Shown: positions 748 to 53,358, numbered from the stretch's first letter. The stretch: DNA of 64,000 bases from an uncultured bacterium (GCA_964624625.1 CAZUXW010000004.1:28931-92930); one strand, 5' to 3'. The notes: generated by a model not told the origin, from the letters alone. Program-made: numbers and translations.

Positions 748-833
748 TTCGGGGCTTTTTTGAATATGGAGGAAGGGCGTCCTTTTCGCCTTGAAGCTGG
801 AAACGAATAACTGTTTATCACAAGGGGGATATC

Positions 834-8584: not shown

Positions 8585-8737
8585 AAGCGAAAATGGACTG
8601 AGGGTTCTGGTCGAGCTGGTCCTGAGATCGTTTAAAAAAACACTGATTGCGCGCAAAAACGGCCTTTAAAGCCTGTGAATTCTGAACCAGGCATTGAATC
8701 CAGTTGGGGCCCCGCGCCGGGCCTTGAGTCATTTTGG

Positions 8738-8766
8738 TTGACAATTGGGTTCGTAACTTCTATAAC
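8738..8766 (+). promoter_or_regulatory. Sigma-70-type promoter (TTGACA-17 bp-TATAAC) driving the recombinase gene
   Basis: Exact -35 hexamer, a 17-bp spacer and a 5/6 match at -10, placed 30 bp upstream of the AGGAGG RBS. Confidence 0.45.
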
Positions 8767-8786
8767 TACAATTATAGAAGTTACGA
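8751..8786. promoter_or_regulatory. Perfect 15-bp inverted repeat with a 6-bp spacer (TCGTAACTTCTATAA-ctacaa-TTATAGAAGTTACGA): candidate tyrosine-recombinase core site or autoregulatory operator
   Basis: Read directly from the sequence. It overlaps the promoter spacer and -10 and abuts the recombinase RBS. Confidence 0.5.
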
Positions 8787-8796
8787 AGGAGGAGTT

Positions 8797-20478: not shown

Positions 20479-22587
20479 TTAAATATGCGGCTGGGAGGCC
20501 AGAAAATCGGTAATGGTAGCCTTGTCCGGCGGGTTAGGCACTAACAGCAAATAACGCTCGAACATTTGGGCCGCGTAATCAGCCCTGGTTCTCATATTCA
20601 TGTAACCCAAGGTCCGATAGGCCTCGGCGTAATTGGGATCAAGGCTTCGGACCGTTTCCCATTCCTTGGTCGCCTGTTCGAAGAGCCCGGCCTGGAAGTA
20701 CTGAAAGCCCAGGTGCTGATGGGCGTCCGTGGAGCTGGGATTTAATTTGACGGCCTTCCGGAAGAACTGAAGGGCATCCTTCGGATTTTTTTGGTTCTCG
20801 GCCAAGATTCCCCGGTCAAACCAGGGAAGAAAATAACCAGGGGACAATTGGGACGCCTTCTCGAAGGAAAGGGCCGCGTGATCGGTCCAGCCCTGGCTGT
20901 TCTCCACCACGCCGGCGTTGAGGAAAAGGCGGCTATTGTCGAACCCGATCGCCTTGGCCTGCATCAGGCAATCCTCCCCCATGAAGCCGCTTTTCGCCAC
21001 CTCGAGGCCGTAGGAAGCCTTGAACAGGTAATAGCGCGAGGCTGTTTCCCGCGACAAGTAATCATGGTTCAGTTCGACCCTGGGAGTCCTGAAATTCTGC
21101 CATAGGAATTCCTCCGCAGGCGGTGGATGTCCCCCATAAGCCTCCCAAAAGAGCAGTCCCTTCATCAGGAGGGTTTCCCGGGGCGCGTCGATTTTCTCGC
21201 TGTAAAAAACAGCCGAGGGGTTCTGGCGGGCTTCGTAGTTTCTTTCCGCCGCCGCCAAGAGGGGCGGGGCCGTTCCCGTCTCGTTCCGGTAATCCAACAA
21301 ATGGTAAATGTCCGGAAAGAGTCCTCCGGTGCGGTCGAAGATGTCCAGGTCGGGACGCAAATGGCGGACGAGTTTCAGGTAAGCCAAGGGAAAGGTGATG
21401 GAGTCACCCGAGCTGAAAAGAACCGAATGGGCCGGCATTTGGGAAAGGATGTCCAGGCCGACGTCCTCCACCGCCAAGTTCCGGCTGGAGTTGTTTTGGG
21501 TGAAGGCGGAAAGGGTTGAGCCGCAGAGGATGAGCGCCGCCGCCGGGATCAGGAGTGGTTTCCAGGAACCCCTTCGGGCAAAAATCCATTCCAGGCCCCT
21601 CAGAATGAGGGGTGAAAACCAAAGAAGGGCCGGGGGAAGAAAAGCCCCGTTGATGTGGTTGTTTTCGGGATTGTAATCATCCCGGATCAGGAACGGAAGA
21701 AGGATGAAAAGGCAAGAGGCCCCGATGAAATATTCCGGTTGGATCCCCTTCCGGTTTTTCCAAAGGCCTGCCGCCAGGAGAACCGGGCCCAGGCCCCAGG
21801 ACTCCAGCAGGAAATCCTTCGTGTAGAGGTAAAGGTCCCAAAAACCATTCAGGAAGGATCCGGTGGAGATGTCGCCGCCATATTGGGCCCGGGTGACATG
21901 GTAAAAAAGCTGTTGGAAGGTGGAGGGGTTTCCCCAATTGACCAGGGGAGCGAGGTTGGCACGGAGCGGAAGGACGAGGTAGGGTGATAATCCGAGGCAA
22001 AGGAGCGAGGAGGCGATCGCGGCTTTTTTACCGTCCTTAAGCTCATTTCGATAAGCCCATCCCAAGGCTGGAAGGATCAAGAAGGTTAGGTGCTGATGGG
22101 ACAGGGCGGCTCCTGTCAGGAAGCCGGCGGCGTAAAGATTGAATGTGGTTGGAAAAAGGACGAAGTTCAATAGACCCGCGGTGAAAAAAAGATGCAGCGC
22201 GAAAACTTCCGGGCTGACCATTTGGTGAAAAACCAGGGGTCCGGCCATGACCAAGCCGGCGGCCAGCAGGACAAGGGAATTTTTCCCGGTGGGGGTGTTG
22301 GAACTTCCGGCGAACTTTCCGAGGGTAGGGACCAAGACCATCAAGGCGGCGGTTTGGGCCAGTATCGACAAAAAAGTCATTCGAAAGGCGGGGGAACCTA
22401 ACGGTAAAAGCTGGGCCAAACGGCCGAGTGTGACGAAAAGAGGGTAGCCCGGAGCGTGGGCGGAGCCCAGGTGAAAGGCGGCGGCGGTCAACTCAGGCGC
22501 GTCCCCCCCCACCATCCCAGGCGCCGCCGCCGCCAAGGATAGGGCGATCCAAATAAAAGGAAGGGCTCCGGTGAAAACCGTGATCAT
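20479..22587 (-). CDS. DUF2723/TMEM260-like polytopic membrane protein fused to C-terminal TPR repeats
   Basis: The N-terminus (GGDAPELTAAAFHLGSAHAPGYPLFVTLGRL) resembles the DUF2723 signature. About 11 TM helices are followed by soluble TPR repeats. Confidence 0.6.
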   Translation of the reverse strand: MITVFTGALPFIWIALSLAAAAPGMVGGDAPELTAAAFHLGSAHAPGYPLFVTLGRLAQLLPLGSPAFRMTFLSILAQTAALMVLVPTLGKFAGSSNTPTGKNSLVLLAAGLVMAGPLVFHQMVSPEVFALHLFFTAGLLNFVLFPTTFNLYAAGFLTGAALSHQHLTFLILPALGWAYRNELKDGKKAAIASSLLCLGLSPYLVLPLRANLAPLVNWGNPSTFQQLFYHVTRAQYGGDISTGSFLNGFWDLYLYTKDFLLESWGLGPVLLAAGLWKNRKGIQPEYFIGASCLFILLPFLIRDDYNPENNHINGAFLPPALLWFSPLILRGLEWIFARRGSWKPLLIPAAALILCGSTLSAFTQNNSSRNLAVEDVGLDILSQMPAHSVLFSSGDSITFPLAYLKLVRHLRPDLDIFDRTGGLFPDIYHLLDYRNETGTAPPLLAAAERNYEARQNPSAVFYSEKIDAPRETLLMKGLLFWEAYGGHPPPAEEFLWQNFRTPRVELNHDYLSRETASRYYLFKASYGLEVAKSGFMGEDCLMQAKAIGFDNSRLFLNAGVVENSQGWTDHAALSFEKASQLSPGYFLPWFDRGILAENQKNPKDALQFFRKAVKLNPSSTDAHQHLGFQYFQAGLFEQATKEWETVRSLDPNYAEAYRTLGYMNMRTRADYAAQMFERYLLLVPNPPDKATITDFLASQPHI

Positions 22588-23354
22588 GGATTGTTTTTTA
22601 AGTTGAAGGAAAAGGTGATGACGCCCGATTGGTCGGTTTGGCTGATTTCAGGCGGAAGGGGCTCGAATTCCCATTGGACCAGGGCTTTGTAAACCACTTG
22701 GTCCAATTCGCGGTAGCCCGAGGTCTGTTCGAATTGGATGTCATTTTCCCGCAAGAGGCCGTTGGGCATGACCGTCAATTGAAGTCGGACAGTAGCCTCG
22801 ATTCCCTGTTTCTTCGCCCAGTCCGGGTACTCAGGATTCACTTGCCACTTGATGGTTCGAGCCGCCAGTTCCCCCTCAATGTTGGCGTTGCCGTTGGGGG
22901 TGCCGGCCACCCCGATATGGCCCAATCCGGCGGTGGTTTTAATTTTATTCGGGGCATCCTTTTTAAGTTCCAAACCGATGGGGGCGGAATGACGCAGGCT
23001 TTCCAAGTAGGCTTCCGACGAGGCGGCGCCGGAATGGACTTTTGGTTTGAGGGGTTTCTTGACGCTGACCTCCGGCTTTTCCGCCGCCGACACGGGCGGG
23101 TTCGACAATTCTGTCCGGGGCGTGGAGAATTCCCCGTTGGTTTCCGCCATGGGAAGTTGGACTGGAACTTCACCCGTGTGTGAAGCGGGTGATCCCAGGC
23201 CCTGGCCCTGGGACATTTGGCCGATGAGGGTCAACTCCATGAGTAGGGGCGTTCGAACCACCAAGAAAGAATGGTAGAGGACAAATAAAATAAGCAGCAG
23301 CAATCCGTGGAATAGGGTCGAGTAAATGAGGGAATTTTTAAAATCTTGTTCCAT
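22584..23354 (-). CDS. tonB: TonB-family energy transducer
   Basis: An N-terminal TM helix, a Pro-rich spacer and a C-terminal TonB-like domain (…EATVRLQLTVMPNG…VITFSFNL). It overlaps the DUF2723 gene by 4 nt. Confidence 0.65.
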   Translation of the reverse strand: MEQDFKNSLIYSTLFHGLLLLILFVLYHSFLVVRTPLLMELTLIGQMSQGQGLGSPASHTGEVPVQLPMAETNGEFSTPRTELSNPPVSAAEKPEVSVKKPLKPKVHSGAASSEAYLESLRHSAPIGLELKKDAPNKIKTTAGLGHIGVAGTPNGNANIEGELAARTIKWQVNPEYPDWAKKQGIEATVRLQLTVMPNGLLRENDIQFEQTSGYRELDQVVYKALVQWEFEPLPPEISQTDQSGVITFSFNLKNNP

Positions 23355-23363
23355 CGAGGATCC

Positions 23364-23819
23364 TTATTTGGGCGTGATGGGGGCGGGGGCATTGTCCCCC
23401 AGCTCCACGGCGATTCCCAATTTGCTGATGCCGGCCGTATAGGCCTTGGACATGATTCCCGCTACGGTTCCGTGGGAGACGTTTTTATCGGCGTTGATCA
23501 TGACCAGGGCCGCCGGCTTCTTTTGAATCAGGGTTTGGAGCAGGGCCACCAGATTTTCCAAGGGGGTTTCCGCGTCGTTCACGTAAACCTTATCCCCCTG
23601 GGTGATGGTAATGGTGATGGTTTCCGGCAAGGCTGGCGAGGGGGCCGCGACCTTCGGCAGCTTCACCTGAAAAGCGCCCTGGAACAGGAAGGGCGTGGTG
23701 ACCATGAAGATGACCAAGAGGACCAACACCACGTCGGTGAAGGGCACCATGTTGATTTCGGCGATGAGCTTCGATTTAGACCTCAGTCGGCTTTGCATCG
23801 ATAGTTCTCCTTCCGGCAA
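23364..23819 (-). CDS. exbD: ExbD/TolR biopolymer transport protein
   Basis: EINMVPFTDVVLVLLVIFMV TM segment and an ExbD periplasmic domain. Confidence 0.8.
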   Translation of the reverse strand: MPEGELSMQSRLRSKSKLIAEINMVPFTDVVLVLLVIFMVTTPFLFQGAFQVKLPKVAAPSPALPETITITITQGDKVYVNDAETPLENLVALLQTLIQKKPAALVMINADKNVSHGTVAGIMSKAYTAGISKLGIAVELGDNAPAPITPK

Positions 23820-23841
23820 ATATCAAAAACAACAAGTCCAC

Positions 23842-23943
23842 TTGCCACAGATGATCAGGGATGAACTCAGACAAATCTTTTTTAAAAGGATTTCGAATTT
23901 TAGTTTGCGCCATCCGTGTTAATCCGTGTTCATCTTTGGCTAA
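23842..23943. repeat. Copy X of a ~95-nt structured intergenic repeat (TTGCCACAGATGATCAGGGA…GTGTTCATCTTTGGCTAA)
   Basis: Lies between exbB and exbD. It shares termini and internal inverted repeats with the copies at 24587 and 42103. Confidence 0.55.
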
Positions 23944-23954
23944 CCCTAGTTTCC

Positions 23955-24566
23955 TCATCCGAACCTTTCGTTTATTTCCGAGATGACGATCTCCGCTTCC
24001 TGGGCGATTTCATTCAGCCTGGCCTGGAACCAGTTGTAGATGAAAACCGCCGAGATGGCCACGAAGAGGCCGGTGGCGGTGGCAAAAAGGGCCTCCGCGA
24101 TTCCTTTGGAAACGACCGCCGCTCCCCCGGCATTGGCCAAAGCCAGGTCCTGGAAGGCCTGAATAATGCCTAAAACGGTGCCAAAAAGCCCCACGAAGGG
24201 CGCGATGCTGCCGATGGTGGCCAGAAGCGGCAATCGGGCTTCCAGCCGCAAAAGCTGGATCTTCGCCTCCCTTTCCATGGCCTGGGTCAAGTCCGTCCCG
24301 TCATTTTTGGCCTTGAGCCCCGCCTGGACGACCTTGGCTAAAAGGGTGCCGTTTCGGTCGCAGGCTTCCACGCATTCATGGAACGTTTTTTTGTTGAGGA
24401 AGGGTTCCAAAGCCGCCATCACCTCTTCCCTTTTCCGGTAATGGGCGCGGAAATAGGTCCAGCGGTTGTAAAGCACCGCCACGACCACAATGGACATGAG
24501 GATCAAAAGGCCGATCGTCCAGCCGCCCTTCAATAAAACCTGGAACAACGAGAAATCGTGACTCAT
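23955..24566 (-). CDS. exbB: ExbB/TolQ/MotA-family proton channel
   Basis: Three TM segments with the conserved C-terminal region (…IAPFVGLFGTVLGII.AF…GIAEAL.ATA.GL). Confidence 0.85.
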   Translation of the reverse strand: MSHDFSLFQVLLKGGWTIGLLILMSIVVVAVLYNRWTYFRAHYRKREEVMAALEPFLNKKTFHECVEACDRNGTLLAKVVQAGLKAKNDGTDLTQAMEREAKIQLLRLEARLPLLATIGSIAPFVGLFGTVLGIIQAFQDLALANAGGAAVVSKGIAEALFATATGLFVAISAVFIYNWFQARLNEIAQEAEIVISEINERFG

Positions 24567-33652: not shown

Positions 33653-34282
33653 TCAGGGCCGGTGGAGCGACGACTCTACTTTTGGCTGGAGCGTTTGGAG
33701 GAAGAGCTTTGGCCTGGGACAGTTTAAGAGGACCAGGGGGCCCGAGGGGCTTCCCGTGTCGATCTCGATATGCCCGTAATTAAAGAGGAGTCCCAGAGGG
33801 CTTTGTTGAAAACCGGTCTTGCGGACCGAACCGTAAGGCACGGCGGTCACCCGCCGGATCGGAAACCAGCTTTCAACATAGATCTCGCGCGGGGTGAGTT
33901 TATACCTGGTTCCGATTTGCCAAAGATGGTGGTAAACCGCCGCCGCGACTGCGATCGTCGTCAATCCCCTCTCGCCCCAATAGAGGCCCAAGTCGGCCCA
34001 ACTGACGGGAAGACCCCGCAGGTTTTTGAAGACTTCCAGCAGGTAAGGCGGGAACCATATGAAAAATCGGCGGGTTAAAAGGCAGAAACCGATCGAAAGG
34101 CCGTAGGCGAAAAGGACCATCCACCAGGACGGCATGGTGTTAAGAAGCGGCTGGTTGGGCGGAGACGCCTTGACCTGGTTTTCTCCCGGGGGTTTGGCCC
34201 CCACGGACTTACGAAATATGTTGATGACCGGTGCTCTCATGGAACCTTCCTCGTGCCGCCCAGCGACGAAGCACTTTACCAA
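33653..34282 (-). CDS. Hypothetical membrane protein (bacterial PH-domain-like)
   Basis: Two TM helices followed by a small beta-rich domain. I recognise no confident family. Confidence 0.35.
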   Translation of the reverse strand: MVKCFVAGRHEEGSMRAPVINIFRKSVGAKPPGENQVKASPPNQPLLNTMPSWWMVLFAYGLSIGFCLLTRRFFIWFPPYLLEVFKNLRGLPVSWADLGLYWGERGLTTIAVAAAVYHHLWQIGTRYKLTPREIYVESWFPIRRVTAVPYGSVRKTGFQQSPLGLLFNYGHIEIDTGSPSGPLVLLNCPRPKLFLQTLQPKVESSLHRP

Positions 34283-34304
34283 AAAAAGCCGTGATTTTCA
34301 TTAT

Positions 34305-34363
34305 CTCAAAACGGATTTGAACCACCCAGCCCCTCGCGCCGAGGCGAGGGGCAGGGTGGTTCA
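34305..34363 (-). terminator. Rho-independent terminator after the glycosidase-like gene
   Basis: A ~20-bp near-perfect GC-rich hairpin (TGAACCACCCAGCCCCTCGC…GCGAGGGGCAGGGTGGTTCA) followed on the minus strand by a GTTTTG tract and then a T7 run. Confidence 0.45.
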
Positions 34364-34383
34364 AAAGATTTTGGGGTAAATTT

Positions 34384-37300
34384 TCATTTTAACCGCGAAT
34401 TTACTTCGGTCCAAAAAGTTGGACGAAGAAAACTTTTCAACATTTGAACCGAGTCTTCCAGCCTCAATTCACTCCGGATCAACAGCCCTTTCCCGACCTT
34501 TTGAAGGATCACCGCTGACCGGCCGGGATTCTTCGAAAGGGCAACAAGGGACGCCCATTGGGAACCCTTGGCGGTTAACCCATGATCGACCTTTCCCGCG
34601 GCCAATCCTGGGACAAAGCCGAAGAGTTCCGCCAGGGCCGGCCCTTCCCGGCGCCCGCCCTCCTTGGAGGGAACCGCCTCATCCCTCGTGTCGTCCACTT
34701 CCCAACCCCCTTGCGTCAAATGGATCAACCACTCGGGAAGAATCTCCCGGTTTGAATAGGCCGGTCCCAAGAAAAGTATCCCGCCCCTTTCCAGGAATTT
34801 TTTGAAGGCCTTTCCCAGCTCCTGGTCGGCCCAGTAAGAGGCGGGTTTAAAATGATGGCGGCCCGAGGAAAAGGCGCCGGTGCCTAAAACCGCCAGTTTG
34901 GTCCGTAAGGCTCCCTTGTCATCCAACAGTGCGGAAGCGATGTCCCCGGTGGAAATCGGCAGGTCCATATCCAGGAAACTGACCGAAGAGGTGACCCGCC
35001 TCATGGTCTTGAGCTCGCTGCCGCCCACCGATGGGAAGTTGGCTGGTTCGGTATTTTTGTGTTTTAGGAAAATCCCCGAGGGCGTGGTGAGGAGCAGGAG
35101 GCTGGAGGGTTCCACCAGGTAAGGTTCCGGTTGAAAAGGTTGGGGCGGCGGCGGGTTCCGTTCCCCGCTCGGAAGTTGGGACCCTTCGGAAACGGTGATG
35201 GTTTGGTCCTGGCCCTCCGCCAAAGTAAAACGGCACCTGGCTTCCCTGCCGTTGGTTTCAGCCAACGTTTTTTGCCATTCCACTGAACCCAAAGTGGTGA
35301 GGTTGGATAAAAGGTGTAGGCTTGCCCAAATATCAACCAGGACTTCAGGGGAGGGACCCTTGTCCAGATGAAAGTTGACGGACCATTCTTTCGCCCCGGT
35401 TCTTTTCAGGGAAAATGAGACTTGGGATTTTCCGACGAGAAGCCTCTGGGCCGAGAATATTTTCAAATCCTCCGGCAGGTGGGGCGAAAACACAACCCGG
35501 TTGTTTCCGGCGTCCGGGGAGAAGCCCGTGATAAATTCCAAAAGCGACTCCGTATTTAAACCGCCTTCCCAGGGCCTCACCCTCCCGCTGGTACCAAGTC
35601 CCCAAGCAGGCGTATTCCAGGGGTGACATTGACCGTCGTACATCTCGGCGAATTCGCCCGAAGGCGTGGCGGTTTTGAGAACCGCGCGGTAGGCCTTTTC
35701 GGCCCAGGGCAGCCGGGCTTTCGAAAACGAGTAAAGCAATTGGCCGGGATTCATTCCCACGAAAAAATCAACCGTCGGCGTTGTTTTCCAAAAACCATCT
35801 TCCCTTCCGAGAATGGGATAAGCATTACGCAAGGCGGCAACCGCATGGCCCGAACTGGAAGGCGTTTCGCCTAAGGGGTCTAAGTCGTTCCTGGCGTAAC
35901 CGCACCAAAAGGGATTGATCAGGACATTGGCCTGGGGCGCGTTGACCAGGGGGCCCAACAGGGATTGGGCCGGCGCCCAATAGCCGGCTTTTTCGTTCCA
36001 ATAGGTGGCCTCGGCCTTGTCGCGGACCTTGCGGGCCAGGCTGGTCATTTCCGAAACATCCTTATCCATCTCAATATATTTTCCCAAGTAGGCCAAGCGG
36101 TCCGCGGCCGCGACGAGGTCGAAGCTGGAATCCGCCGCGAAGGCGTAAGTGGATAGGTCGTAATTGGGACAGGGGCATTGGTCAAAGCACCTGGATTCGA
36201 GGCACCAAAGATAGGTCTCGTCCCGGTGGAAAAAATACTTGTCCTCCACCCGGACCTGTCCCTCGACGCATCGTTTTAAATAGCCCCACCTGGCCCGGAT
36301 CAGGTCGATGTCGCCGGTCGTCAGGTAATACCACCAATGCTGCAGCACAATCCAATTGGGAGTCTCCGCGTGCTCCACTTGGATGTCCGAAAGGTCTTTT
36401 TTCCGGAAATTCAGGGGGAAATCCACCCGGACGCTGTTGGGAAGGGATCCCATGCTCGAGGCGATCCCGTAAAAAAAATCCATGGCTCCCTTCGCTTCCC
36501 GGGGATGGCCTGTTTTCAAAAACCAGCGGATGGGGCCGTTGTTGTCACGGATCCAAGTGTAGGAATAACCGATGAGCGGCGAGAAGCCTCCGGAGTGGGA
36601 TTGCTGGCTCTTAAAAATCATCGATTCAATCTCGAAAAGATCCGTGATTTTGGGATCCCCGGCGAATTCCGTTCCCTGCCGGAACCAATCGGTGAAATAA
36701 ACGCGGGTCTGATCCAAAAGGGAGAGGGCTCCTTTTTTGCGGAGGCCGGCGCTGTCCGCGGCGCTTTCCCGGGAAGTATCGGAGGAGAGAAGAAAGAAAG
36801 CGGCCCATGTTTCCCCGCCTGGCGGCAAGCTTGGAAAGCGGTAGCGGAGGTTGCCTTCGGATATGCTGGCGTTGCCCTGTTGGAAAGCCCCCAGCCTCCA
36901 TACCGTTCGCTTTTTCGCCTTCGCGGCTTTTTGAACCAACACCAAATCATGGCCGATGTTTTTCTTCGGGGCTGTCACGTTCCAGGCTGCTTGGATTTTC
37001 AACTCAAGATTCAGGTCGGATTCGGTTTTTGTTCCCGAGTTGGTGAGGTGGACCATCCGGATGATAACGGGCGTGTTGTTCCAAACGGCATCATCCTCGG
37101 AAGTCACTGGGGCGAAATCATAACTCTCGACGGACAAACCGCTCCCCTGGGCTTCCACCTTCACCAAGCCGGACCTTTTCACCCAGCCGATTTTTTGCCC
37201 GGGAAGCCAGACGGGGCTGCCGCCCCTGGTCAGGGCCATGTGGAGGGAGCCCAAGTCCGGCTCTTGATAGGAATCCCCGTAGATGTTCGACCAATTCCAA

Positions 37301-37599
37301 AGGGGGCTGGAAAGCCCGACCAGGGCGAAGGCCCGCCCGTTTCCGACGCAATAGGCTCCGGTTAGGTTGGCCTTGACCTCTTGGGAGGATAAATCAAAAG
37401 TTTCGTTCCAGGAATAAAGGTCGCGGAGCCAGGGACGCTCCTCCAGAACCCTTCTTCCGGCTTTTTCCAAAGCCCTATCCGCTCCAGTCGTGGAACGGCC
37501 CGGGGGACCTTGGTCGCTTTGGCCCAACCAAGCCGGTTCCGGCAATCCCCAAAGCACCGGCAGGATCAGCAGGATTATCCAGGGGCGCCTTTCGTTCAT
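34384..37599 (-). CDS. Secreted six-hairpin (alpha/alpha)6 glycosidase-like protein (GH15/GH63-like core) with an extra C-terminal domain
   Basis: A signal peptide. YSYTWIRD and multiple W-rich helical repeats are reminiscent of glucoamylase/GH63 toroids. The C-terminal ~200 aa (…GGILFLGPAYSNRE…) resemble a class-I-amidotransferase-like/ThuA-like fold. The family assignment is tentative. Confidence 0.5.
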   Translation of the reverse strand: MNERRPWIILLILPVLWGLPEPAWLGQSDQGPPGRSTTGADRALEKAGRRVLEERPWLRDLYSWNETFDLSSQEVKANLTGAYCVGNGRAFALVGLSSPLWNWSNIYGDSYQEPDLGSLHMALTRGGSPVWLPGQKIGWVKRSGLVKVEAQGSGLSVESYDFAPVTSEDDAVWNNTPVIIRMVHLTNSGTKTESDLNLELKIQAAWNVTAPKKNIGHDLVLVQKAAKAKKRTVWRLGAFQQGNASISEGNLRYRFPSLPPGGETWAAFFLLSSDTSRESAADSAGLRKKGALSLLDQTRVYFTDWFRQGTEFAGDPKITDLFEIESMIFKSQQSHSGGFSPLIGYSYTWIRDNNGPIRWFLKTGHPREAKGAMDFFYGIASSMGSLPNSVRVDFPLNFRKKDLSDIQVEHAETPNWIVLQHWWYYLTTGDIDLIRARWGYLKRCVEGQVRVEDKYFFHRDETYLWCLESRCFDQCPCPNYDLSTYAFAADSSFDLVAAADRLAYLGKYIEMDKDVSEMTSLARKVRDKAEATYWNEKAGYWAPAQSLLGPLVNAPQANVLINPFWCGYARNDLDPLGETPSSSGHAVAALRNAYPILGREDGFWKTTPTVDFFVGMNPGQLLYSFSKARLPWAEKAYRAVLKTATPSGEFAEMYDGQCHPWNTPAWGLGTSGRVRPWEGGLNTESLLEFITGFSPDAGNNRVVFSPHLPEDLKIFSAQRLLVGKSQVSFSLKRTGAKEWSVNFHLDKGPSPEVLVDIWASLHLLSNLTTLGSVEWQKTLAETNGREARCRFTLAEGQDQTITVSEGSQLPSGERNPPPPQPFQPEPYLVEPSSLLLLTTPSGIFLKHKNTEPANFPSVGGSELKTMRRVTSSVSFLDMDLPISTGDIASALLDDKGALRTKLAVLGTGAFSSGRHHFKPASYWADQELGKAFKKFLERGGILFLGPAYSNREILPEWLIHLTQGGWEVDDTRDEAVPSKEGGRREGPALAELFGFVPGLAAGKVDHGLTAKGSQWASLVALSKNPGRSAVILQKVGKGLLIRSELRLEDSVQMLKSFLRPTFWTEVNSRLK

Positions 37600-39320
37600 G
37601 TTTTTTTCCCGAGTTTTTTTCCGCCTTTGGTTCCCGGAACCGGTTCTTTGGACGGCGGCGCGGCTGGGATGGGTGTGGGGATAGGCTTACTCATGGAATA
37701 AAAATAGGTTTTGCCGTGGTAAGGGACAGGCTTGAGAAGATATTGGCCCAGGAACTGGGATAGGCGGTCGGGCGGAAGGTTCATCAACCGGATAAATTTC
37801 AGGTTCCACTCGTCATTTTTGTTCACGACTTCGGACAGAACCCAGACTTTGTGGTGGCGCTTCCAGGTATGGTCCAACAGAAGGGACAGGTCCTCCCAAG
37901 GATCCTGGTCTCGACCCTGGGAGTGGTTGGCTGGAGGTTTATCTTTTTTGACCTCGTATTTCCTTAAAAAAGAGTGAAGGCTTAAATAATGTCTTTTTTG
38001 GTAGCGGTCAATGTAGAAAGGAACGGTGTTGATTCCCGTCAGCATTAAAAGGTCCTCCGCCCCGACTTTCCAATCGATTGCCTCAAGGAGGGGTTTCGCG
38101 CTGTGGGTCACGGCGGTTTTCTTGATCGAGGATTGGAAGTTATAGAGGTACAAGAGCGCCACCAACCCCGTCCATAACAGGATCACGATTCCCCGGTTGG
38201 CGAAATGAAGGACGGGGTTGGTCCAACGCTGGGAGATGGCGGAGACGGTCACCCCCATCAAGATCCAGCAAGGCACGGTGGAAGAAACCCAAAACTCGAT
38301 ATTCCAGGGCTCCCACCATAAAAAAAAGGGGACAAAAACACCGATCCAGAGGACCCCGACCCAAAGAGTTTGCCGGTAACTTTCCCAAAAGAGCCTGAAA
38401 CGGACGAGGAGAAAACCCAGGCAGATGAAAATGGCGTATTGGAAGAGGGTTTTGACAAACTCGAGGGTGATGGGCTGGTTGGGGCCTGGATCCGGATTGG
38501 TTTTGGCGAGAAAAGCCTTCAACATCGCCAATTTTCCCTGTTCAAAACCAGCGGCGGGAAGATAGCCGCCCCATCCTTGGACATGGAAATATGCGAAAAC
38601 CCAATAAATCCAGGAAGCGTAAGTCTTGTGGAAATAAATAAACCTTCCCACAAAGGCGTAAAAGGAAAGCACGCCCAAGGTGAGGGACGACAGGTAATAG
38701 ATACAAAACCAAAACCTTTCTCCGGCGCTTTTCTCCCGGACGCAGCAGATTCCGCCCAAAAACGCCGGGATCAGCATCAAATTGGTCTGGTGTCCCAGAA
38801 CCGCCAACCCGTGGGAAAGGCCCAACAGGACGCCGAAGGCCGGCCCCCGCTCCTTCAAAAAAGTCAGCAGGTACCAGGTCAAGAGGGGTGTGACCGTGGC
38901 GAAAATTCGGACGCCAGGGGATGTGGAAAAATACCAGTAGCTGAAAGTAAAGGACATGCCCAGTGCCGTCAGGAACGATACGAAGGGGTCCTTGGTTTTT
39001 CGGACGAGAAGGTGGAAGGCGATCAGCACCCCCAGGATCCCGATCAAGATATCGAAAAATTGGAGGGCCACCATGCCGTCCCAGGCGGCCCCGTGATCCC
39101 TACCCCATAAATAAAAAAGGCGGCCCAAAAATGCGTAAATCAGGTGGTGGGGATGAAAAAACTTATAAAGCGGCGTGTCCGAGTTTTCGACCCTCTCGGC
39201 GAACACCATGCCGTCGTAGGTGAAATTGACGGGCAACTTGGAAAGGTACACGAAAAGGCATAAAGCGAATAAACCCAGGCTCAAAAGAAAGGTAACGGCC
39301 GGTTTGGTCCAATCACGCAT
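37596..39320 (-). CDS. DUF2723/TMEM260-like polytopic membrane protein (standalone paralog)
   Basis: The N-terminus (FTYDGMVFAE…HPHHLIYAFLGRLF) parallels the 20479-22587 protein. About 12 TM helices. Its stop overlaps the start of the downstream glycosidase-like gene. Confidence 0.55.
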   Translation of the reverse strand: MRDWTKPAVTFLLSLGLFALCLFVYLSKLPVNFTYDGMVFAERVENSDTPLYKFFHPHHLIYAFLGRLFYLWGRDHGAAWDGMVALQFFDILIGILGVLIAFHLLVRKTKDPFVSFLTALGMSFTFSYWYFSTSPGVRIFATVTPLLTWYLLTFLKERGPAFGVLLGLSHGLAVLGHQTNLMLIPAFLGGICCVREKSAGERFWFCIYYLSSLTLGVLSFYAFVGRFIYFHKTYASWIYWVFAYFHVQGWGGYLPAAGFEQGKLAMLKAFLAKTNPDPGPNQPITLEFVKTLFQYAIFICLGFLLVRFRLFWESYRQTLWVGVLWIGVFVPFFLWWEPWNIEFWVSSTVPCWILMGVTVSAISQRWTNPVLHFANRGIVILLWTGLVALLYLYNFQSSIKKTAVTHSAKPLLEAIDWKVGAEDLLMLTGINTVPFYIDRYQKRHYLSLHSFLRKYEVKKDKPPANHSQGRDQDPWEDLSLLLDHTWKRHHKVWVLSEVVNKNDEWNLKFIRLMNLPPDRLSQFLGQYLLKPVPYHGKTYFYSMSKPIPTPIPAAPPSKEPVPGTKGGKKLGKKT

Positions 39321-42206: not shown

Positions 42207-43505
42207 CTAACCGCGGCTGATTCGCTTCAGCATGGTTTCGAAGCCGGGGAATGAGGTATTGATGTTTTCGGTGTCCAGAATCGTCGTGGGCCCCTCCGCG
42301 ATCAAAGCCGCGACGGCGAGGGACATCGCGATTCGGTGGTCCCCTCCCGAAGAAAGCACGCAACCTTTTAACGGAGTGGGCCCCTTGATCACCCATCCAT
42401 CCTGGGTGGGCGTGATATCGGCGCCCATTTTTTTCAAAGTCACCGCCATCAGGCTGATCCTGTCGGATTCCTTGACCTTCATTTCGCCGGCATTCCGGAC
42501 GATGGTCGTTCCCCTGGCCTGGGTCGCAGCCACGGCGAAAACCGGAAACTCATCGATCATCCGGGGAACCAGGTCGCCTCCCGCGGCAACGGCCTTTAAT
42601 GGGGAGGACGACACCATGAGGTCCGCGCTTGGCTCCTCCCCCTTTCCCGATTTTCGGGGCATCACCTTGATTTTAGCGCCCATTTTTTTGAGAACATCGA
42701 GGATTCCGGTGCGGGTGGGATTCATTCCGACATTTTTTAAAGTCACTAAGGACTTGGGAACAATAAGACCGGCAACGATAAAAAAAGCGGCCGAGGAAAT
42801 ATCGCCTGGGACGGTAATTTTCCTCGCTTTGAATGGATCGACCGGGCCCGTTACCGAAATTTCCTTGTTCTTTTTGCGGAAGGGGATGGAAAAGGCGCTG
42901 AACATTCTTTCCGTATGATCCCTTGTGGGCGTCGGCTCGACGACGGTGGTTTTCCCATCCGCGAAAAGACCTGCCAACAACAGGGCGCTTTTGACCTGTG
43001 CGCTGGCCACCGGCAAGGCATAGGTGATTCCCGTTAATCCGCTTGGTTGCAGCGTTAAGGGAAGCAGGGCTGCATTCCCGGGGCCCGAGATCCGCGCTCC
43101 CATTTGGGCCAGCGGCGCGACTACCCGTTTCATCGGGCGCTTCCGGAGATACTTGTCTCCGGTTATGGAACAGGCAAAGGGCTGGCCTGCCAAAAGCCCC
43201 AAAATAATCCTGGCGGTCGTTCCCGAGTTCCCCGCGTCAAGAATTCCTTTGGGCATCCTCAAGGAATTGAGCCCTTTACCATGGATCACGATTTCCCCGG
43301 CCTTTTGTTCGATTCGGACGCCCATCTTCCTGAAAATTCCGATGGTGGAACGGCAATCGGCCGAGTTTAGAAAATGGCGGACACGCGTTTTTCCAAGCGC
43401 GAGGGACCCCAGCATGACGGAACGGTGGGAAATGGATTTGTCGCCGGGAACCTCCAGGGTCCCTTTCAGGCTCGCCGCGGGATGGACCGTTATTTTTTTC
43501 ATCAT
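42207..43505 (-). CDS. aroA: 3-phosphoshikimate 1-carboxyvinyltransferase (EPSP synthase)
   Basis: Motifs LEVPGDKSISHR, LDAGNSGTTAR and GDHRIAMS. The start ATG overlaps the tyrA stop (ATGA). Confidence 0.9.
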   Translation of the reverse strand: MMKKITVHPAASLKGTLEVPGDKSISHRSVMLGSLALGKTRVRHFLNSADCRSTIGIFRKMGVRIEQKAGEIVIHGKGLNSLRMPKGILDAGNSGTTARIILGLLAGQPFACSITGDKYLRKRPMKRVVAPLAQMGARISGPGNAALLPLTLQPSGLTGITYALPVASAQVKSALLLAGLFADGKTTVVEPTPTRDHTERMFSAFSIPFRKKNKEISVTGPVDPFKARKITVPGDISSAAFFIVAGLIVPKSLVTLKNVGMNPTRTGILDVLKKMGAKIKVMPRKSGKGEEPSADLMVSSSPLKAVAAGGDLVPRMIDEFPVFAVAATQARGTTIVRNAGEMKVKESDRISLMAVTLKKMGADITPTQDGWVIKGPTPLKGCVLSSGGDHRIAMSLAVAALIAEGPTTILDTENINTSFPGFETMLKRISRG

Positions 43506-44350
43506 AATTTTTCCCGCAGGGCGCGGGCCTTCTCGAAATAGTCGAACCAAAACCGGGAATTCCCTTTTTTGAGTTTCTTTTCCAGCGCGGCCAGGGTCCT
43601 TCGGTATTGGAGCAGGCAGGATTTGATTTCCACCGCGTTCATTTCCAGGATATCGCTCCACATGGCGGGATTTCCCCCCGCGATCCGGGTAAAGTCGCGG
43701 AAACCCGATCCCACGGCCGTCCGGAGGGAGGAAGACCGGCGGAGCTGACGCCCATATTGGCTGGTGAGGACCGCCGCCAAGAGGTGGGGCAGGTGGCTGG
43801 AGAGGGCCACGTTGCGGTCGTGGGTCGCCGCGTCCATCACAACCGGTCTGGCCCCGGTTTCTTTCCAAAAGTCGACCGACCTCCGGACAAGCCCCGCGGG
43901 TGTTTTCGGAAGGGGCGTGATGAAGACAAACTTTCCTTTATACAAGTCCGGGTCCGCGAAAGCGGGGCCGGATTTTTCCTTTCCCGCCATGGGGTGGCAG
44001 GGGACGAAATGAAGGTTCATCCCCGGCAGGCGGGACGCGGCCTTCACCACTTCCCCCTTCACGCTGGACACATCCAAAATAAGGGTTCGTGGTTGGAGCA
44101 GGGGGGTCAATTCCCTCAAAACGGGAGCGATGGATCCGGAGTGGGCGCACAATACGATGACATCGGCTCCCAGCACGGCCTTTTCGAAAGTCGCGGCGAC
44201 CGGCAAAAGTTTCGCGGCTTTTTTTCGGGAGGCGGCCCTGTGATTCCAGCCGACGAGGTCATATTTTCGTTTTTTTTTCAAAACCAAAGCAAGGGATCCG
44301 CCCAAGAGGCCGACCCCAATGATCGCGACTTTGGAATGGGAGGTACTCAT
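43502..44350 (-). CDS. tyrA: Prephenate/arogenate dehydrogenase
   Basis: N-terminal Rossmann motif VAIIGVGLLGGS and a TyrA-like catalytic region (HPMAG). Confidence 0.85.
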   Translation of the reverse strand: MSTSHSKVAIIGVGLLGGSLALVLKKKRKYDLVGWNHRAASRKKAAKLLPVAATFEKAVLGADVIVLCAHSGSIAPVLRELTPLLQPRTLILDVSSVKGEVVKAASRLPGMNLHFVPCHPMAGKEKSGPAFADPDLYKGKFVFITPLPKTPAGLVRRSVDFWKETGARPVVMDAATHDRNVALSSHLPHLLAAVLTSQYGRQLRRSSSLRTAVGSGFRDFTRIAGGNPAMWSDILEMNAVEIKSCLLQYRRTLAALEKKLKKGNSRFWFDYFEKARALREKL

Positions 44351-51333: not shown

Positions 51334-51654
51334 TTAAAAGCGAACGATCATCCCGACTTTTAGCCGCAATTTGCCGCATGAGCCGCGAGGCAGTTCCAAA
51401 CAATGCTCGCTTTCCGGGGGCCCCCAAAAGAGGCGCCAAGGGCCGGCGGACGGAACAATTTCGAGTATTGTCCGGGTTTTATCCATAAAAACAAGGTCTG
51501 GTTTTAAAAAAGTGAAGAAGGTATGGACGGACCGGCAATGGGGGAAAAAAAGGCCCTTGGCCCCGGGGGGCCAGTTCCGCATCCCCATGAGGCCTAAAAA
51601 TCTCGGCCAAAATGTCCCGGCGGTCAGGATGTTTTGAAGGGACAGGCTTCTCAT
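51334..51654 (-). CDS. DUF192-family protein (COG1430)
   Basis: ~106 aa with HCRSVHTFFTF…DLVFMD, resembling the DUF192 core. Confidence 0.55.
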   Translation of the reverse strand: MRSLSLQNILTAGTFWPRFLGLMGMRNWPPGAKGLFFPHCRSVHTFFTFLKPDLVFMDKTRTILEIVPSAGPWRLFWGPPESEHCLELPRGSCGKLRLKVGMIVRF

Positions 51655-52517
51655 GGCCGGAAGAATTGCAGGAGAATGGGCCCAAAGATGATCAAAAAAG
51701 TCACCGGCATGATGAAGAGGATCAAGGGGACCAGCATCTTAACGGGCATTTCCTGGACGGTTTTTTCGGCCCTTTGAGTTTGCTTGTCACGGGTGGTCAA
51801 GGAAAGCTGCCGCAGGATTTTCGAGACCCCTGTGCCGAAGCGCTCGGCCTGGATAAGGCTGGCGCAAAAGAGGCTGTAATCGGTCAAATGGAGCCGGCTG
51901 GCAGAGGATTCCAGCGCCTTTTTGCGGCTGGAACCGCTTTGGGTTTGCCCCAGGACAAGGGTGAATTCGGCCTGGAGGGGTCCTGGTTTTGAATGGCGGA
52001 GATATTGCTCCATCGACTGTTCCAGGGAAAGGCCAGCCTCGGAACATAAAGAGAGGATTTCCAACGCGTTCGGCAATTCCGACAGCAGAGCCCTTTCCCG
52101 CCTCCCGGCCTGGTCCCGAAGCCATTGCAGAGGGAGGATTCCTCCGGCCAAGAGGGCCAAGAGCCCCAGTCCCAGGCTGCCGGTCAAAAAAAGAACAAAA
52201 GCCGCAGCCACCAGGGCTGAAAATATTTGGGAAAAAACCAAATGGCGCTGGGTCAAGTCGCCGCGTCCCGCCCTTTGAAGAAGGCCCGAGAGGTAGAGGG
52301 CGTAATTCCCGGCCCATTTGAATCTCGAAAGCGATGGAAGCCTATTTCCGACGAGAAAAATGGTTCCGGCGGCCAGGGAGGTCTTTTGGGATTGGAGGAG
52401 GTTCGACAGCCTGATTTTTTGCCTCCAGGTGCGCCAGGAGGACAGGGCCTCGTCCGCCAGGTTGAAAGAAAGCCATCCCCACATGACCGCTGAAATGAGG
52501 AGAAAAAAGGTCGCCAA
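51651..52517 (-). CDS. tadC: Tad/Flp pilus assembly protein TadC (T2SS-F family)
   Basis: A GspF-like cytoplasmic domain (LSELPNALEILSLCSEAGLSLEQS) with TM helices at both ends. It overlaps the DUF192 gene by 4 nt. Confidence 0.65.
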   Translation of the reverse strand: MATFFLLISAVMWGWLSFNLADEALSSWRTWRQKIRLSNLLQSQKTSLAAGTIFLVGNRLPSLSRFKWAGNYALYLSGLLQRAGRGDLTQRHLVFSQIFSALVAAAFVLFLTGSLGLGLLALLAGGILPLQWLRDQAGRRERALLSELPNALEILSLCSEAGLSLEQSMEQYLRHSKPGPLQAEFTLVLGQTQSGSSRKKALESSASRLHLTDYSLFCASLIQAERFGTGVSKILRQLSLTTRDKQTQRAEKTVQEMPVKMLVPLILFIMPVTFLIIFGPILLQFFRP

Positions 52518-52518
52518 G

Positions 52519-53358
52519 TCAAAACTCCAAGCGTAAAAGCTGTCGAATCCAAAGGAACCCGATCGTTTCCAACAAACCAGCCAGCAGAAGGATGGCCCAT
52601 CCTGTTTTTTCGGTGAAAAGCGGGAGGATAAGGCCGGGATCCATGAAAAAAAAGACGGCTCCCAGCAAAAGCGGCAGCAACCCCATGAGAAGTCCCGAAA
52701 GCCGGGCCTGGGCCGTAAGGGCTTCCCTCTTACGGAACATCCTGTTCTTTTCCTCCATGCCGTCCATTAGGACCTCCAGCAAATGGATCAAATTAGCCCC
52801 CGTTTGCCGGGAAATCCTGTAGGATTCCAGAAATTGCCTCAACTCGATGAAACCCTCAAAACGACCGCACATTTTGGACAGGGCCTGGTCGGCGGAAGCC
52901 CCCAGATTCAACTCGGAGCAAACCAAGGACCATTCCTCTTTTAATGGACTGGGACTTTCCGCCGACAAGTACTCAAAAACCTGTTGGACGGTTTGACCTG
53001 TTTTAAGCGATTGAACCATCATCCCCAGAGCTTGAGGGAAAAGCTCGCGCATCCCCTCCATTTTTTTATTCCGCTCGATTTTTTTCAGGTAAATCGGAAT
53101 ATTTTTGAGGGCGTACCAGCCCAAGGCGAGGGGAAAAAGGATGAAAAGGACCGGGAAACCAGCGAGCCCCAAGGCCGCCACCGCCGCCAGGGCGCAGAGG
53201 ATGCCAAGGGGGGCGCGGATGGGGATTCTTCCGCTCCAGGCCTTTGTCGGGAGGGTGGAAGGCTTGACCAGGGCCGACATCCCTTGGGCGGCCCACCAGG
53301 ATAAAAGTCCCGCGGATAAGGCCGCCAAGCCCACGCCAGCCAACAGGGATGGGTTCAT
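52519..53358 (-). CDS. tadB: Tad/Flp pilus assembly protein TadB (T2SS-F family)
   Basis: A GspF-like domain (FPQALGMMVQSLKTGQTVQQ…LNLGAS.DQAL) and three TM segments. Confidence 0.65.
   Translation of the reverse strand: MNPSLLAGVGLAALSAGLLSWWAAQGMSALVKPSTLPTKAWSGRIPIRAPLGILCALAAVAALGLAGFPVLFILFPLALGWYALKNIPIYLKKIERNKKMEGMRELFPQALGMMVQSLKTGQTVQQVFEYLSAESPSPLKEEWSLVCSELNLGASADQALSKMCGRFEGFIELRQFLESYRISRQTGANLIHLLEVLMDGMEEKNRMFRKREALTAQARLSGLLMGLLPLLLGAVFFFMDPGLILPLFTEKTGWAILLLAGLLETIGFLWIRQLLRLEF

Follow-up and report, generated by a model that had tools for sequence, protein, structure and literature searches.

Here we describe a locus that we tentatively read as a conserved three-gene module of the candidate phylum FCPU426 for adding and processing a cell-envelope glycan. 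It comes from an uncultured peat-soil bacterium of that lineage, and in the window (the whole stretch of 64,000 nucleotides that was analysed) its three genes, here called A, B and C, all lie on the minus strand (Table 1). Gene A encodes a membrane protein with the predicted fold of GT-C glycosyltransferases, gene B a glycosidase-like protein with an N-terminal export signal, and gene C a small bPH_2 protein. The order of the three genes and the translational coupling of the first two are conserved among related genomes.

Conservation and coupling of the three genes

A previous reading made from the sequence only had described A and B as a two-gene unit, and we found both reading frames at the positions claimed. 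Since a search of 5.8 billion proteins returned 69 clusters matching A and 32 matching B, these are not chance ORFs. The pairing of A and B was correct as far as it went; the unit was incomplete, being actually a triad with a bPH_2 protein. This conserved third gene, immediately downstream, had been overlooked, as had a loss of about 155 residues in the window's B.

The stop codon of A overlaps the start codon of B, in agreement with the translational coupling proposed earlier, and each of the 22 A+B loci examined retains an NTGA overlap (ATGA in 19, GTGA in two and TTGA in one), even where identity in B is down to 32%. Co-occurrence of the two genes, on which the pairing had been staked, was found in every related genome locus examined. 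The order A-B-C was present in 16/16 GTDB species representatives, also in lineages with unrelated flanks, and a C homologue directly follows B in all loci long enough, the ones with unrelated flanks included.

The organism is a diderm, as Omp85, TonB/ExbBD and OmpA are encoded within the window. Polyprenyl-phosphate sugar synthase, flippase or other glycan genes were found neither in the window nor adjoining the triad. Neither A nor B reaches any curated family threshold, so their specificity is not readable from homology.

Table 1. Features of the A-B-C locus (window positions; residues in brackets)
Feature	Position	Strand	Description or basis
Gene A	37596..39320	-	ORF, ATG start, 574 aa
A transmembrane region	(residues 1-395)	-	11 predicted TM helices
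A first periplasmic loop	39144..39215	-	invariant columns, alignment A2; side from helix order and positive-inside rule
A periplasmic alpha/beta C-terminal domain	(residues 408-545)	-	AF2 model
Stop/start overlap A/B	37596..37599	-	ATGA, sequence
Gene B	34384..37599	-	ORF, ATG start, 1071 aa; exported multi-domain glycosidase-like protein (predicted)
B signal-peptide-like N-terminus	37522..37599 (1-26)	-	MNERRPW, then hydrophobic stretch
B N-terminal beta-sandwich	36781..37422 (60-273)	-	strand pattern of the model; co-aligns with glycosidase N-domains
B (alpha/alpha)6 barrel	35527..36654 (316-691)	-	predicted structure
B C-terminal beta-sandwich	35176..35520 (694-808)	-	model; completes GH15/GH65/GH94-type three-domain body
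B extra alpha/beta domain	34387..35106 (832-1071)	-	beta-alpha-beta pattern in model
Deletion junction in B	34645-34668 (~978-985)	-	alignment A1
GC-rich hairpin 3' of B stop	~34316..34365	-	fold -46.5 kcal/mol, z = -6.7 against shuffles
Promoter-like element for C	34273..34301	-	ATGAAA, 17 nt, then TGG-TAAAGT (extended -10 type)
Gene C	33653..34240	-	membrane protein of ~195 aa, bPH_2 domain

Gene A resembles GT-C_A glycosyltransferases

By its predicted structure, A is clearly an inner-membrane glycosyltransferase of the GT-C_A fold, as the earlier reading of a GT-C-type enzyme had supposed. The polytopic character noted then agrees with several hydrophobic segments by hydropathy and with 11 transmembrane helices in the AF2 model (pLDDT 85.1, pTM 0.80), which shows an N-terminal TM module and a long first extracytoplasmic loop; the C-terminal tail is Pro/Thr-rich and then Lys-rich. 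In a Foldseek comparison with the PDB, 39 GT-C chains ranked ahead of any other fold (E 3e-7 to 2e-2), with STT3 at E = 2.9e-7 and PglB, DPY19, ArnT, Pmt4, ALG3/9/12, AftB and Emb also found; TM-scores were 0.55/0.58 for ArnT and 0.5-0.58 across ArnT, STT3 and PglB.

The closest known systems are ArnT (GT83), PglB/STT3 (GT66), DPY19 and PMT (GT39), which have the same membrane fold and N-terminal conserved module, a long first periplasmic loop with an invariant Asp and a periplasmic C-terminal soluble domain (E = 3e-7 to 1e-4, TM up to 0.58). However, identity is 10-13%, these enzymes have 13 TM helices against 11 in A, and A has no MIR domains or TPR repeats. Its signature motifs (YTYDG, FHPHH, GHQTN and WWEPWNIEFW) also differ from theirs: the WWDYG of STT3/PglB has no counterpart in the soluble domain of A, where no WWD motif occurs (residues 408-545), and the only WW motif of A is WWEPWN (335-340), between TM9 and TM10.

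In the 32-sequence alignment A2, which reaches down to 20% identity, the acidic residue of the first extracytoplasmic loop, Asp36 (39213-39215, in YTYDG), is invariant. So are Pro57-His58-His59 of FHPHH (residues 55-59; HPHH at 39144-39155), with His56 nearly so, and W129, H177 and W336/P338/F343. The predicted topology would put all these conserved residues on the periplasmic side. Judging from position, Asp36 is the likely candidate for the catalytic base and HPHH for a metal or phosphate site, and His58/His59, His56, His177 and the WWEPWN loop may line the same face of the protein.

The sequence-only reading had assigned A to the DUF2723/TMEM260-like proteins (PF11028), with an N-terminal signature in common with the 702-aa protein at 20479-22587 and, thus, two DUF2723 paralogs in the region; human TMEM260 is a protein O-mannosyltransferase (PMC10214176). 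This assignment has to be abandoned. The 702-aa protein, which carries TPR, scores 62.7 bits on the PF11028 profile, whereas A has no TPR domain and no PF11028 match even at E <= 1; the best BLASTP hit between the two proteins has E = 0.24 and is not N-terminal, and the hhalign probability is 0.15%. A paralogous relationship within PF11028 is thus ruled out, and all that the two membrane proteins have in common is the GT-C superfamily. Very distant Chloroflexi relatives of A (22-24% identity) have both PF11028 and PF13231.

The sole Pfam match of A is to PMT_2 (PF13231) and falls below threshold (22.0 bits, E = 2e-4, residues 83-196; cut-off 26.1 bits), while precomputed matches to this family exist in seven close A homologue clusters, together with two distant Chloroflexi-type matches. 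A could be a PMT/ArnT-like protein O-glycosyltransferase acting on Pro/Thr-rich linkers of envelope proteins, among them the linker after the B signal peptide and the tail of A itself, with B trimming or editing these glycans. PMT_2 being the only Pfam family that A approaches, and one whose threshold some homologue clusters pass, would fit such a role, as would the presence of Pmt4, Pmt1/2 and DPY19 among the fold matches, the Pro/Thr-rich tails of A homologues, the Pro/Thr/Ser-rich linkers that follow the signal-peptidase site in B homologues, and the position of distant Chloroflexi relatives of A at the end of Tad pilus clusters, a context that typically goes with pilin glycosylation. We nevertheless regard it as unlikely, as A has neither the MIR domains of PMTs nor the TPR repeats of TMTC and TMEM260, and the linker of the window's B is short and poorly Pro/Thr-rich.

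Gene B: an export signal and a six-hairpin fold

The N-terminus of B looks like a signal peptide, as had been claimed before, which suggests that the protein is exported. Hydropathy gives a single N-terminal hydrophobic segment (residues 7-26), preceded by two arginines, in a part of the model with pLDDT < 50 (residues 1-41). The cleavage site is non-canonical in the window's B and canonical in homologues (AYA↓Q, ANA↓S, VFG↓Q).

The proposal of a six-hairpin core followed by extra C-terminal domains was borne out by the predicted structure, which contains the twelve-helix (alpha/alpha)6 barrel of the six-hairpin glycosidase superfamily. With its N-sandwich, barrel and C-sandwich, B has the same body as the GH65/GH94 maltose, kojibiose and cellobiose phosphorylases (Foldseek E = 5e-21 to 1e-15 over ~810 columns; best values 5e-21 for GH94 and 1e-17 for GH65, alignments of ~810-860 columns), and its profile locally matches GH94, GH63, GH37 and GH78 structures, including chitobiose phosphorylase (E = 2e-4). 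The N-domain co-aligns with those of glucoamylase 1lf6, dextran dextrinase 9ju0 and YgjK (515, 551 and 541 residues aligned, respectively). Among 24 B family members, near-threshold Pfam matches were only to six-hairpin families, namely MGH1-like (10/24), rhamnosidase (8/24), trehalase, GH15 and GH94, the last touched by one member only, and no match to Pfam GH65 was found. MGH1-like (PF22422, GH63) is the family that most members approach, with a best E = 5.7e-8, a precomputed match in four clusters and ~80 residues of the barrel covered; the window's B itself has no match to it (threshold 27 bits). It shares the barrel with GH37 trehalases and ER alpha-glucosidase I as well. PF00723 (GH15) does not match the window's B and matches 2/24 members at E = 0.06.

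Resemblance to GH15, represented by bacterial glucoamylase 1lf6, glucodextranase 1ulv and dextran dextrinase 9ju0, extends from the N-terminal beta-sandwich and the barrel to a W-x-R-D motif where barrel helix 2 begins. This corresponds to the YSYTWIRD noticed earlier, which we located at residues 345-352 and found invariant in the family. Identity to GH15 is, however, 10-12%, B has an extra beta-sandwich and an alpha/beta domain, and genetic coupling to a GT-C enzyme, as seen in B, is not a feature of GH15. The candidate catalytic residues are W349/R351/D352 (WIRD), D460/E461 (DETYLW; E461 at 36217-36219) and E652 (GEFAEMYD; 35644-35646), the D460-E461 pair and E652 being invariant across the wider B family. 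These two acidic positions, ~190 residues apart, lie in the alpha5-alpha6 and alpha11-alpha12 loops, which we take to be those of the GH15 acid and base, a correspondence by position and not by residue-level superposition. From position solely, E461 (or D460) is proposed as general acid and E652 as base.

A GH65/GH94 phosphorylase identity was considered for B and does not fit: those phosphorylases are cytoplasmic and have no base carboxylate, whereas B starts with an export signal and keeps Glu652, invariant in the family, at the putative base position. The six-hairpin fold is common to hydrolases, phosphorylases, transglycosylases and even epimerases, and GH65 itself also has hydrolases, such as PGGHG and a Flavobacterium alpha-1,2-glucosidase (PMC8626586).

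The extra C-terminal domain (residues 832-1071, profile A5) gave no Pfam or PDB sequence match, so that ThuA-like, an option raised in the sequence-only reading, found no support at sequence level; its beta-alpha-beta layout is compatible with a ThuA-like or class I glutamine-amidotransferase-like domain. A beta-rich insert of ~155 aa, kept by all other full-length B homologues, is absent from the window's B, which may therefore differ in activity. The full-length domain was found only at loci also having A and C: among 80 metagenome loci of B relatives, A and C were present at only two, precisely those with the full domain, while shorter relatives were never adjoined by A or C. Probably, this domain docks B to membrane partners. 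The short forms adjoin secreted NAGPA+AMIN envelope-glycan proteins.

It could be argued that B scavenges nutrients in the periplasm as a glycosidase or phosphorylase functionally unrelated to A, and that their adjacency is inherited gene order only. The flanking genes are indeed housekeeping (aromatic amino-acid synthesis, cmk, msrB, rpsA), the wider B family occurs without A, and in one locus (L003) a sugar ABC transporter, an importer, lies upstream of the triad together with a glycogen-synthase-like gene. Nevertheless, the NTGA overlap is kept at every locus examined although B diverges widely, the triad persists through flank changes, the complete C-terminal domain goes together with A and C, and the export signal and candidate base of B do not fit a cytoplasmic phosphorylase; we consider this explanation very unlikely.

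Gene C and the intergenic region

The product of C belongs to bPH_2 (PF03703; E = 5.3e-8, 33.4 bits against a cut-off of 22). Two hydrophobic helices before the PH domain can be read from the translation; the hydropathy scan called no segment at threshold. Translation probably starts at the ATG at 34240, after the ribosome-binding sequence GAGGAAGG.

Between B and C lies a hairpin unique within the window. It had been called a strong terminator; the strength of the hairpin was confirmed, yet the terminator scan did not call it, the T-tract being weak and the tail AAAUCCGUUUUGAG failing the scan rule. In relatives, the hairpins found at this place are smaller and have T-runs. The hairpin stands inside the conserved triad, ahead of the conserved promoter-like element of C, and its probable role is to end the A-B transcript or to stabilise it. 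Loci L013, L015, L016, L017 and L020 all keep the block GATGAAAAG...TTTTTTGGTAaAtT upstream of C, and the element may act as a promoter. As C thus appears to have its own promoter after the hairpin, it is linked to A and B by adjacency alone.

Discussion

In several bacterial systems (BcsA/BcsZ, OpgH/OpgD-OpgG, Pel, Psl, alginate), a membrane glycan-forming enzyme is genetically tied to an exported glycoside hydrolase, which edits what the first enzyme makes. A and B resemble them in combining a membrane transferase with an exported hydrolase-like protein. They differ in that the synthases of those systems belong to GT-A (GT2) and draw on nucleotide sugars from the cytoplasmic side, whereas A is of GT-C type. 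Further differences are the fold of the hydrolase, the presence of a bPH_2 partner and the strictness of the NTGA coupling. In eukaryotes, the GT-C enzyme STT3 transfers a glycan that glucosidase I then trims, and this OST/glucosidase I pair may, by analogy, be a functional parallel to A and B.

From such systems one may also conceive that A is a polymerising GT-C enzyme, like Emb, Aft and Mpt, that makes a periplasmic or surface glycan. The acceptor would then be the growing polymer and not a protein or lipid, and B would be a length-control or transglycosylation enzyme that sets chain length, cyclises or releases, on the model of BcsZ with BcsA, OpgD/OpgG with OpgH or the (alpha/alpha)6 domains of cyclic beta-1,2-glucan synthase. 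The fold matches of A include AftB and EmbA/B/C, the profile of B weakly touches cyclic beta-1,2-glucan synthase and GH94, and the glycogen-synthase-like and transporter genes of L003 would suit a polymer. This nonetheless seems somewhat unlikely to us, because no export or outer-membrane components or donor-synthesis genes adjoin the triad, the L003 context is absent from other lineages, and A is small (574 aa) and has no large carbohydrate-binding domains in the periplasm such as those of Emb and AftD.

All characterised GT-C enzymes draw their sugar, at the periplasmic face, from a polyprenyl-phosphate carrier. According to the add-and-process reading that we favour, for which the add-and-trim system suggested in the sequence-only reading is a reasonable starting point, A would do likewise, an acceptor outside the cytoplasm receiving the sugar. 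Re-initiation at the NTGA overlap would keep the amount of B in fixed proportion to that of A, and B, once exported, would process the glycan of A as an inverting GH15/GH65-like exo-glycosidase or transglycosylase, an alpha-linked hexose being our best guess for its substrate. C, with its two helices, may serve as a membrane accessory or scaffold. Together, the three proteins probably build and trim a sugar structure of the cell envelope.

Gene organization of the A-B-C triad

Genes A and B, which encode a 574-aa predicted GT-C-fold membrane glycosyltransferase and a 1071-aa exported glycosidase-like protein, are both present on the minus strand where a sequence-only reading had placed two long reading frames, and the overlap it described between the stop of A and the start of B was also borne out. 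Homologues of both are numerous, with B matching 32 clusters and A matching 69, and the genes are real. We found that the overlap has the form NTGA in all loci holding both genes (22/22), which argues against the possibility that A and B are functionally independent, an explanation that we regard as highly improbable. The C-terminal tail of A is rich in Lys (KGGKKLGKKT) and is encoded by a purine-rich stretch, GGAAAAAAACTCGGGAAAAAAAC, immediately 5' of the ATG of B (window 37600-37640); similar tails occur at the C-termini of A homologues. This tail may be shaped by the need to accommodate the ribosome-binding region of B within the coding sequence of A.

The strong hairpin proposed to follow B was confirmed as a 50-nt, GC-rich element of -46.5 kcal/mol (z = -6.7 versus shuffles). 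It is absent from the output of a consensus terminator scan because its T-tail is weak. Only one copy is found in the window, ruling out a repeated element (REP or MITE).

Location of the features of the A-B-C triad and of the domains of B
Feature	Location	Strand	Description or basis
Gene A	37596..39320	minus	574-aa ORF
Gene B	34384..37599	minus	1071-aa ORF
A/B stop-start overlap, ATGA	37596-37599	minus	TGA of A shares bases with ATG of B
Hairpin 3' of B	~34316-34365
Disordered signal/linker region	B residues 1-41		model
N-terminal beta-sandwich	B residues 60-273		model
Helical linker	B residues 276-308		model
Twelve-helix barrel	B residues ~316-691		model
Second beta-sandwich	B residues 694-808		model
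Pro-rich linker	B residues ~809-831		model
Alpha/beta domain	B residues 832-1071		model
GGRREGP linker	B residues ~978-985 (34645-34668)

Downstream of B lies gene C, which encodes a bPH_2 membrane protein. The entire neighbourhood is syntenic with a 1.44-Mb contig of candidate phylum FCPU426, and in three other lineages A, B and the bPH_2 gene adjoin in the same order with unrelated flanks: the first has glycogen synthase, a sugar ABC transporter and sulfatases, the second a different ABC transporter, and the third a further set of genes. By tblastn over 21 loci, A-B-C was found in every one of sufficient length. The A-B linkage is kept, and the unit is a triad that includes C rather than the pair initially envisaged.

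The start of C is most likely the ATG at 34240, behind GAGGAAGG. Spacing between B and C is variable, from a 4-nt overlap in one lineage to 15-170 nt in others, and in several spacers a conserved GATGAAAAG...TTTTTTGGTAaAtT block comes after a small hairpin that carries a T-run. This block is found at window 34273-34301 and in the B-C spacers of five homologous loci (L013, L015, L016, L017 and L020), about 35 nt upstream of the bPH_2 start, and to judge by its sequence it reads as a putative -35 element plus extended -10 promoter. We infer that the spacer may terminate or stabilise the A-B message and, beyond that point, supply C with a promoter of its own.

Protein A is a predicted GT-C glycosyltransferase

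In the Pfam scan A matched PMT_2 alone, at 22 bits and under the 26.1-bit cut-off, and did not match PF11028 (DUF2723/TMEM260-like). Neither the NCBIfam scan nor PDB sequence searches returned anything, and full-length profiles gave at most marginal PDB matches. From 32 sequences AlphaFold2 gave a confident model of A (pLDDT 85.1, pTM 0.80), with 11 TM helices and, at the C-terminus, an alpha/beta domain. Foldseek ranked 39 GT-C structures ahead of every other fold, including STT3, PglB, DPY19, ArnT (TM 0.55/0.58), Pmt4, ALG3/9/12, AftB and Emb. Residues D36 (in YTYDG), P57-H58-H59, W129, H177 and W336/P338/F343 are invariant in the family, and all of them would face the periplasm according to the helix order of the model and the positive-inside rule. 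The model, the structural matches and the invariant residues together indicate that A is a divergent GT-C_A glycosyltransferase, as predicted at fold level, outside any curated family.

A was previously described as one of two DUF2723 paralogs sharing an N-terminal signature, the other being the 702-aa protein at 20479. This relationship has to be abandoned: the 702-aa protein is a true PF11028 plus TPR protein, and its comparison with A gives a BLASTP E = 0.24 and an hhalign probability of 0.15%. Human TMEM260 is a protein O-mannosyltransferase (PMC10214176), an activity that is not transferable to A. The 702-aa gene comes after ExbB, ExbD and TonB (window 20479-24566), its start overlapping the TonB stop at 22584-22587, and such wiring of a GT-C enzyme to a Ton system is unusual.

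The remotest sequence relatives of A, from Chloroflexi (loci L022 and L023), share about 23-30% identity and are annotated GT39. They are the final gene of Tad/Flp pilus clusters (RcpC-TadZ-TadA-TadB-TadC-DUF192-GT-C), a position that hints at pilin glycosylation. No B-like neighbour was found beside the Chloroflexi, Krumholzibacteriia or other distant relatives examined, which rules out the A-B pairing as a general property of them. Two of the relatives examined lie outside the Chloroflexi. The window also contains a TadB/TadC-like pair of T2SSF genes (51651-53358), about 12 kb from A.

Protein B has a six-hairpin glycosidase-like core

The only Pfam match of B, to the rhamnosidase six-hairpin family, is at chance level; the NCBIfam scan gave no above-threshold match, PDB sequence searches with the single protein and with full-length profiles were marginal only, and B fails profile tests for GH15, GH63, GH65 and GH94. 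The 24 family members approach six-hairpin families only: MGH1-like (10), Bac_rhamnosid6H (8), trehalase (3), GH15 (2) and GH94 (1). A barrel-only profile of the wider B family produced local PDB matches to GH94, GH63, GH37 and GH78, in which the catalytic loops are not resolved at residue level.

The structural model (pLDDT 85.4, pTM 0.86) upheld the proposed six-hairpin glycosidase-like core, with a twelve-helix barrel and GH94 and GH65 enzymes as top Foldseek matches over ~810 columns (E down to 5e-21); they rank first because of the three-domain body. The motifs GYSYTWIRDNNGP, RDETYLW, PSGEFAEMYDG and GRVRPWEGG are invariant, and the DE pair and E652 remain so in relatives at 27-40% identity. 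These candidate catalytic residues are placed in the loops where GH15 has its acid and base, an assignment that is positional. Since B carries an export signal and the candidate base is kept, it is more likely a hydrolase or transglycosylase than a phosphorylase.

The C-terminal domain of B has no Pfam or PDB sequence match beyond chance-level hits to a PhoQ sensor (E = 0.18) and, in one member, to DUF6805. In all other full-length homologues this alpha/beta domain contains a beta-rich insert of about 155 aa that is missing from B of the window, where the GGRREGP linker takes its place. An assembly error looks unlikely as the cause, judging from the sequence record, which contains a protein of 1071 aa identical to this copy (P0001, an 8-member cluster).

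The wider family of B

A word-indexed search yielded no more than 32 clusters for B, also when a profile was used, and repeating the profile search in a 5.8-billion-protein set added no members. An exhaustive HMMER search (alignment A4) with clusters at 50% identity recovered 631 representatives, 233 of them at E <= 1e-30. Their length is mostly 750-950 aa, with coverage limited to the sandwich-barrel body, and this larger family does not pass Pfam thresholds either. GH176 is described in a bioRxiv paper as a barrel-only enzyme of clan GH-G (10.64898/2026.07.01.735942).

A scan with alignment A7 gave 80 metagenome loci with B relatives, of which two have A-like and C-like neighbours, these being the ones with the full C-terminal domain of B; A and C are missing from the other 78, so the A-B pairing is not general to the wider family. 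In six loci (L025, L030, L034, L037, L038 and L041) the relative of B is a short form, about 900-1030 aa long and lacking the complete C-terminal domain, and its gene lies immediately 3' of one for a secreted protein that combines NAGPA (phosphodiester glycosidase), AMIN and Cu_amine_oxidN1 domains. The uncurated enzyme family of B thus takes part in a second recurrent pairing, which again points to envelope glycans.

Genomic context

A B homologue is encoded by 16 species-representative genomes, all of them MAGs, most labelled candidate division FCPU426 and recovered from bog, palsa and soil. In the window A and B are flanked by housekeeping genes: pheA, an aminotransferase, tyrA, aroA, cmk, adenylate cyclase and msrB on one side, and a bPH_2 protein, DAHP synthase, plsC, rpsA, TPR proteins and ExbB-ExbD-TonB on the other. 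Of the window ORFs of at least 150 aa, none was identified as a polyprenyl-phosphate sugar synthase or as another glycan gene. The presence of Omp85, OmpA and TonB systems within the window indicates a diderm organism.

Other features of the window were also recorded. A 1074-aa ORF (2726-5950) combines Peptidase_MA_2, PD40 beta-propeller repeats, fn3 and a C-terminal Omp85 barrel domain, an unusual fusion of a protease with an outer-membrane barrel. A phage-integrase-family tyrosine recombinase gene (8734-9882) lies amid housekeeping genes, and GC around 6-16 kb is 0.49-0.52 versus 0.55 elsewhere. The aroA (EPSP synthase) ORF as listed (42207-43868) begins at a TTG, encodes 553 aa and shares about 370 nt with tyrA; as its syntenic relative in L001 has 431 aa, the true start probably lies further 3', first-start calling having made the ORF artefactually long.

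Discussion

GT-C enzymes build many envelope structures, among them lipid A modifications, glycosylated proteins and mycobacterial arabinan, and we know of no substrate for most bacterial GT-C families. The role of the bPH_2 domain is poorly understood. The predicted folds of A and B and the export signal of B are established, as are the conserved coupling and the persistence of the triad, and this evidence reaches fold-level enzyme classes, not function. By what is known of GT-C enzymes, the donor of A would be a polyprenyl-phosphate sugar used at the periplasmic face. B would act on the same glycan as an inverting glycosidase or transglycosylase, and its C-terminal domain would be the likely link to A and C. 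We tentatively favour this reading, in which one protein adds a glycan and the other processes it, as a real possibility that falls a little short of probable. It is somewhat unlikely that A is instead a polymer synthase and B its length-control enzyme. Protein O-glycosylation of Pro/Thr-rich linkers with trimming, which overlaps with the addition and processing of a glycan by A and B, seems unlikely.

A bolder proposal, which we consider quite improbable, is that the triad is the bacterial equivalent of a transfer-then-trim system of eukaryotes, where the GT-C transferase STT3 is followed by the six-hairpin glucosidase I. Envelope proteins or a lipid-linked glycan would be glycosylated by A, and B, docked to A and C by its unique C-terminal domain, would at once remove a terminal sugar for maturation or quality control; the system would consist of two enzyme families without curated description and would be limited to an uncultured phylum. 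Each component falls within a known superfamily (GT-C_A, the six-hairpin clan and bPH_2), and no description of a module combining the three, or of a GT-C plus six-hairpin pair, was found in the searchable literature. The A-B-C linkage is solid and testable, in an uncultured phylum, and involves no mechanistic step without precedent.

Candidate phylum FCPU426 is common in peat and soil and, to our knowledge, has no cultured member. The triad constitutes a compact, strictly conserved unit of an unassigned GT-C family, an unassigned exported GH15/GH65-like family (about 630 representatives) and a bPH_2 protein. Their linkage lets all three families be tested jointly, and a single substrate assignment would annotate the others and would also describe an envelope glycan of this candidate phylum.
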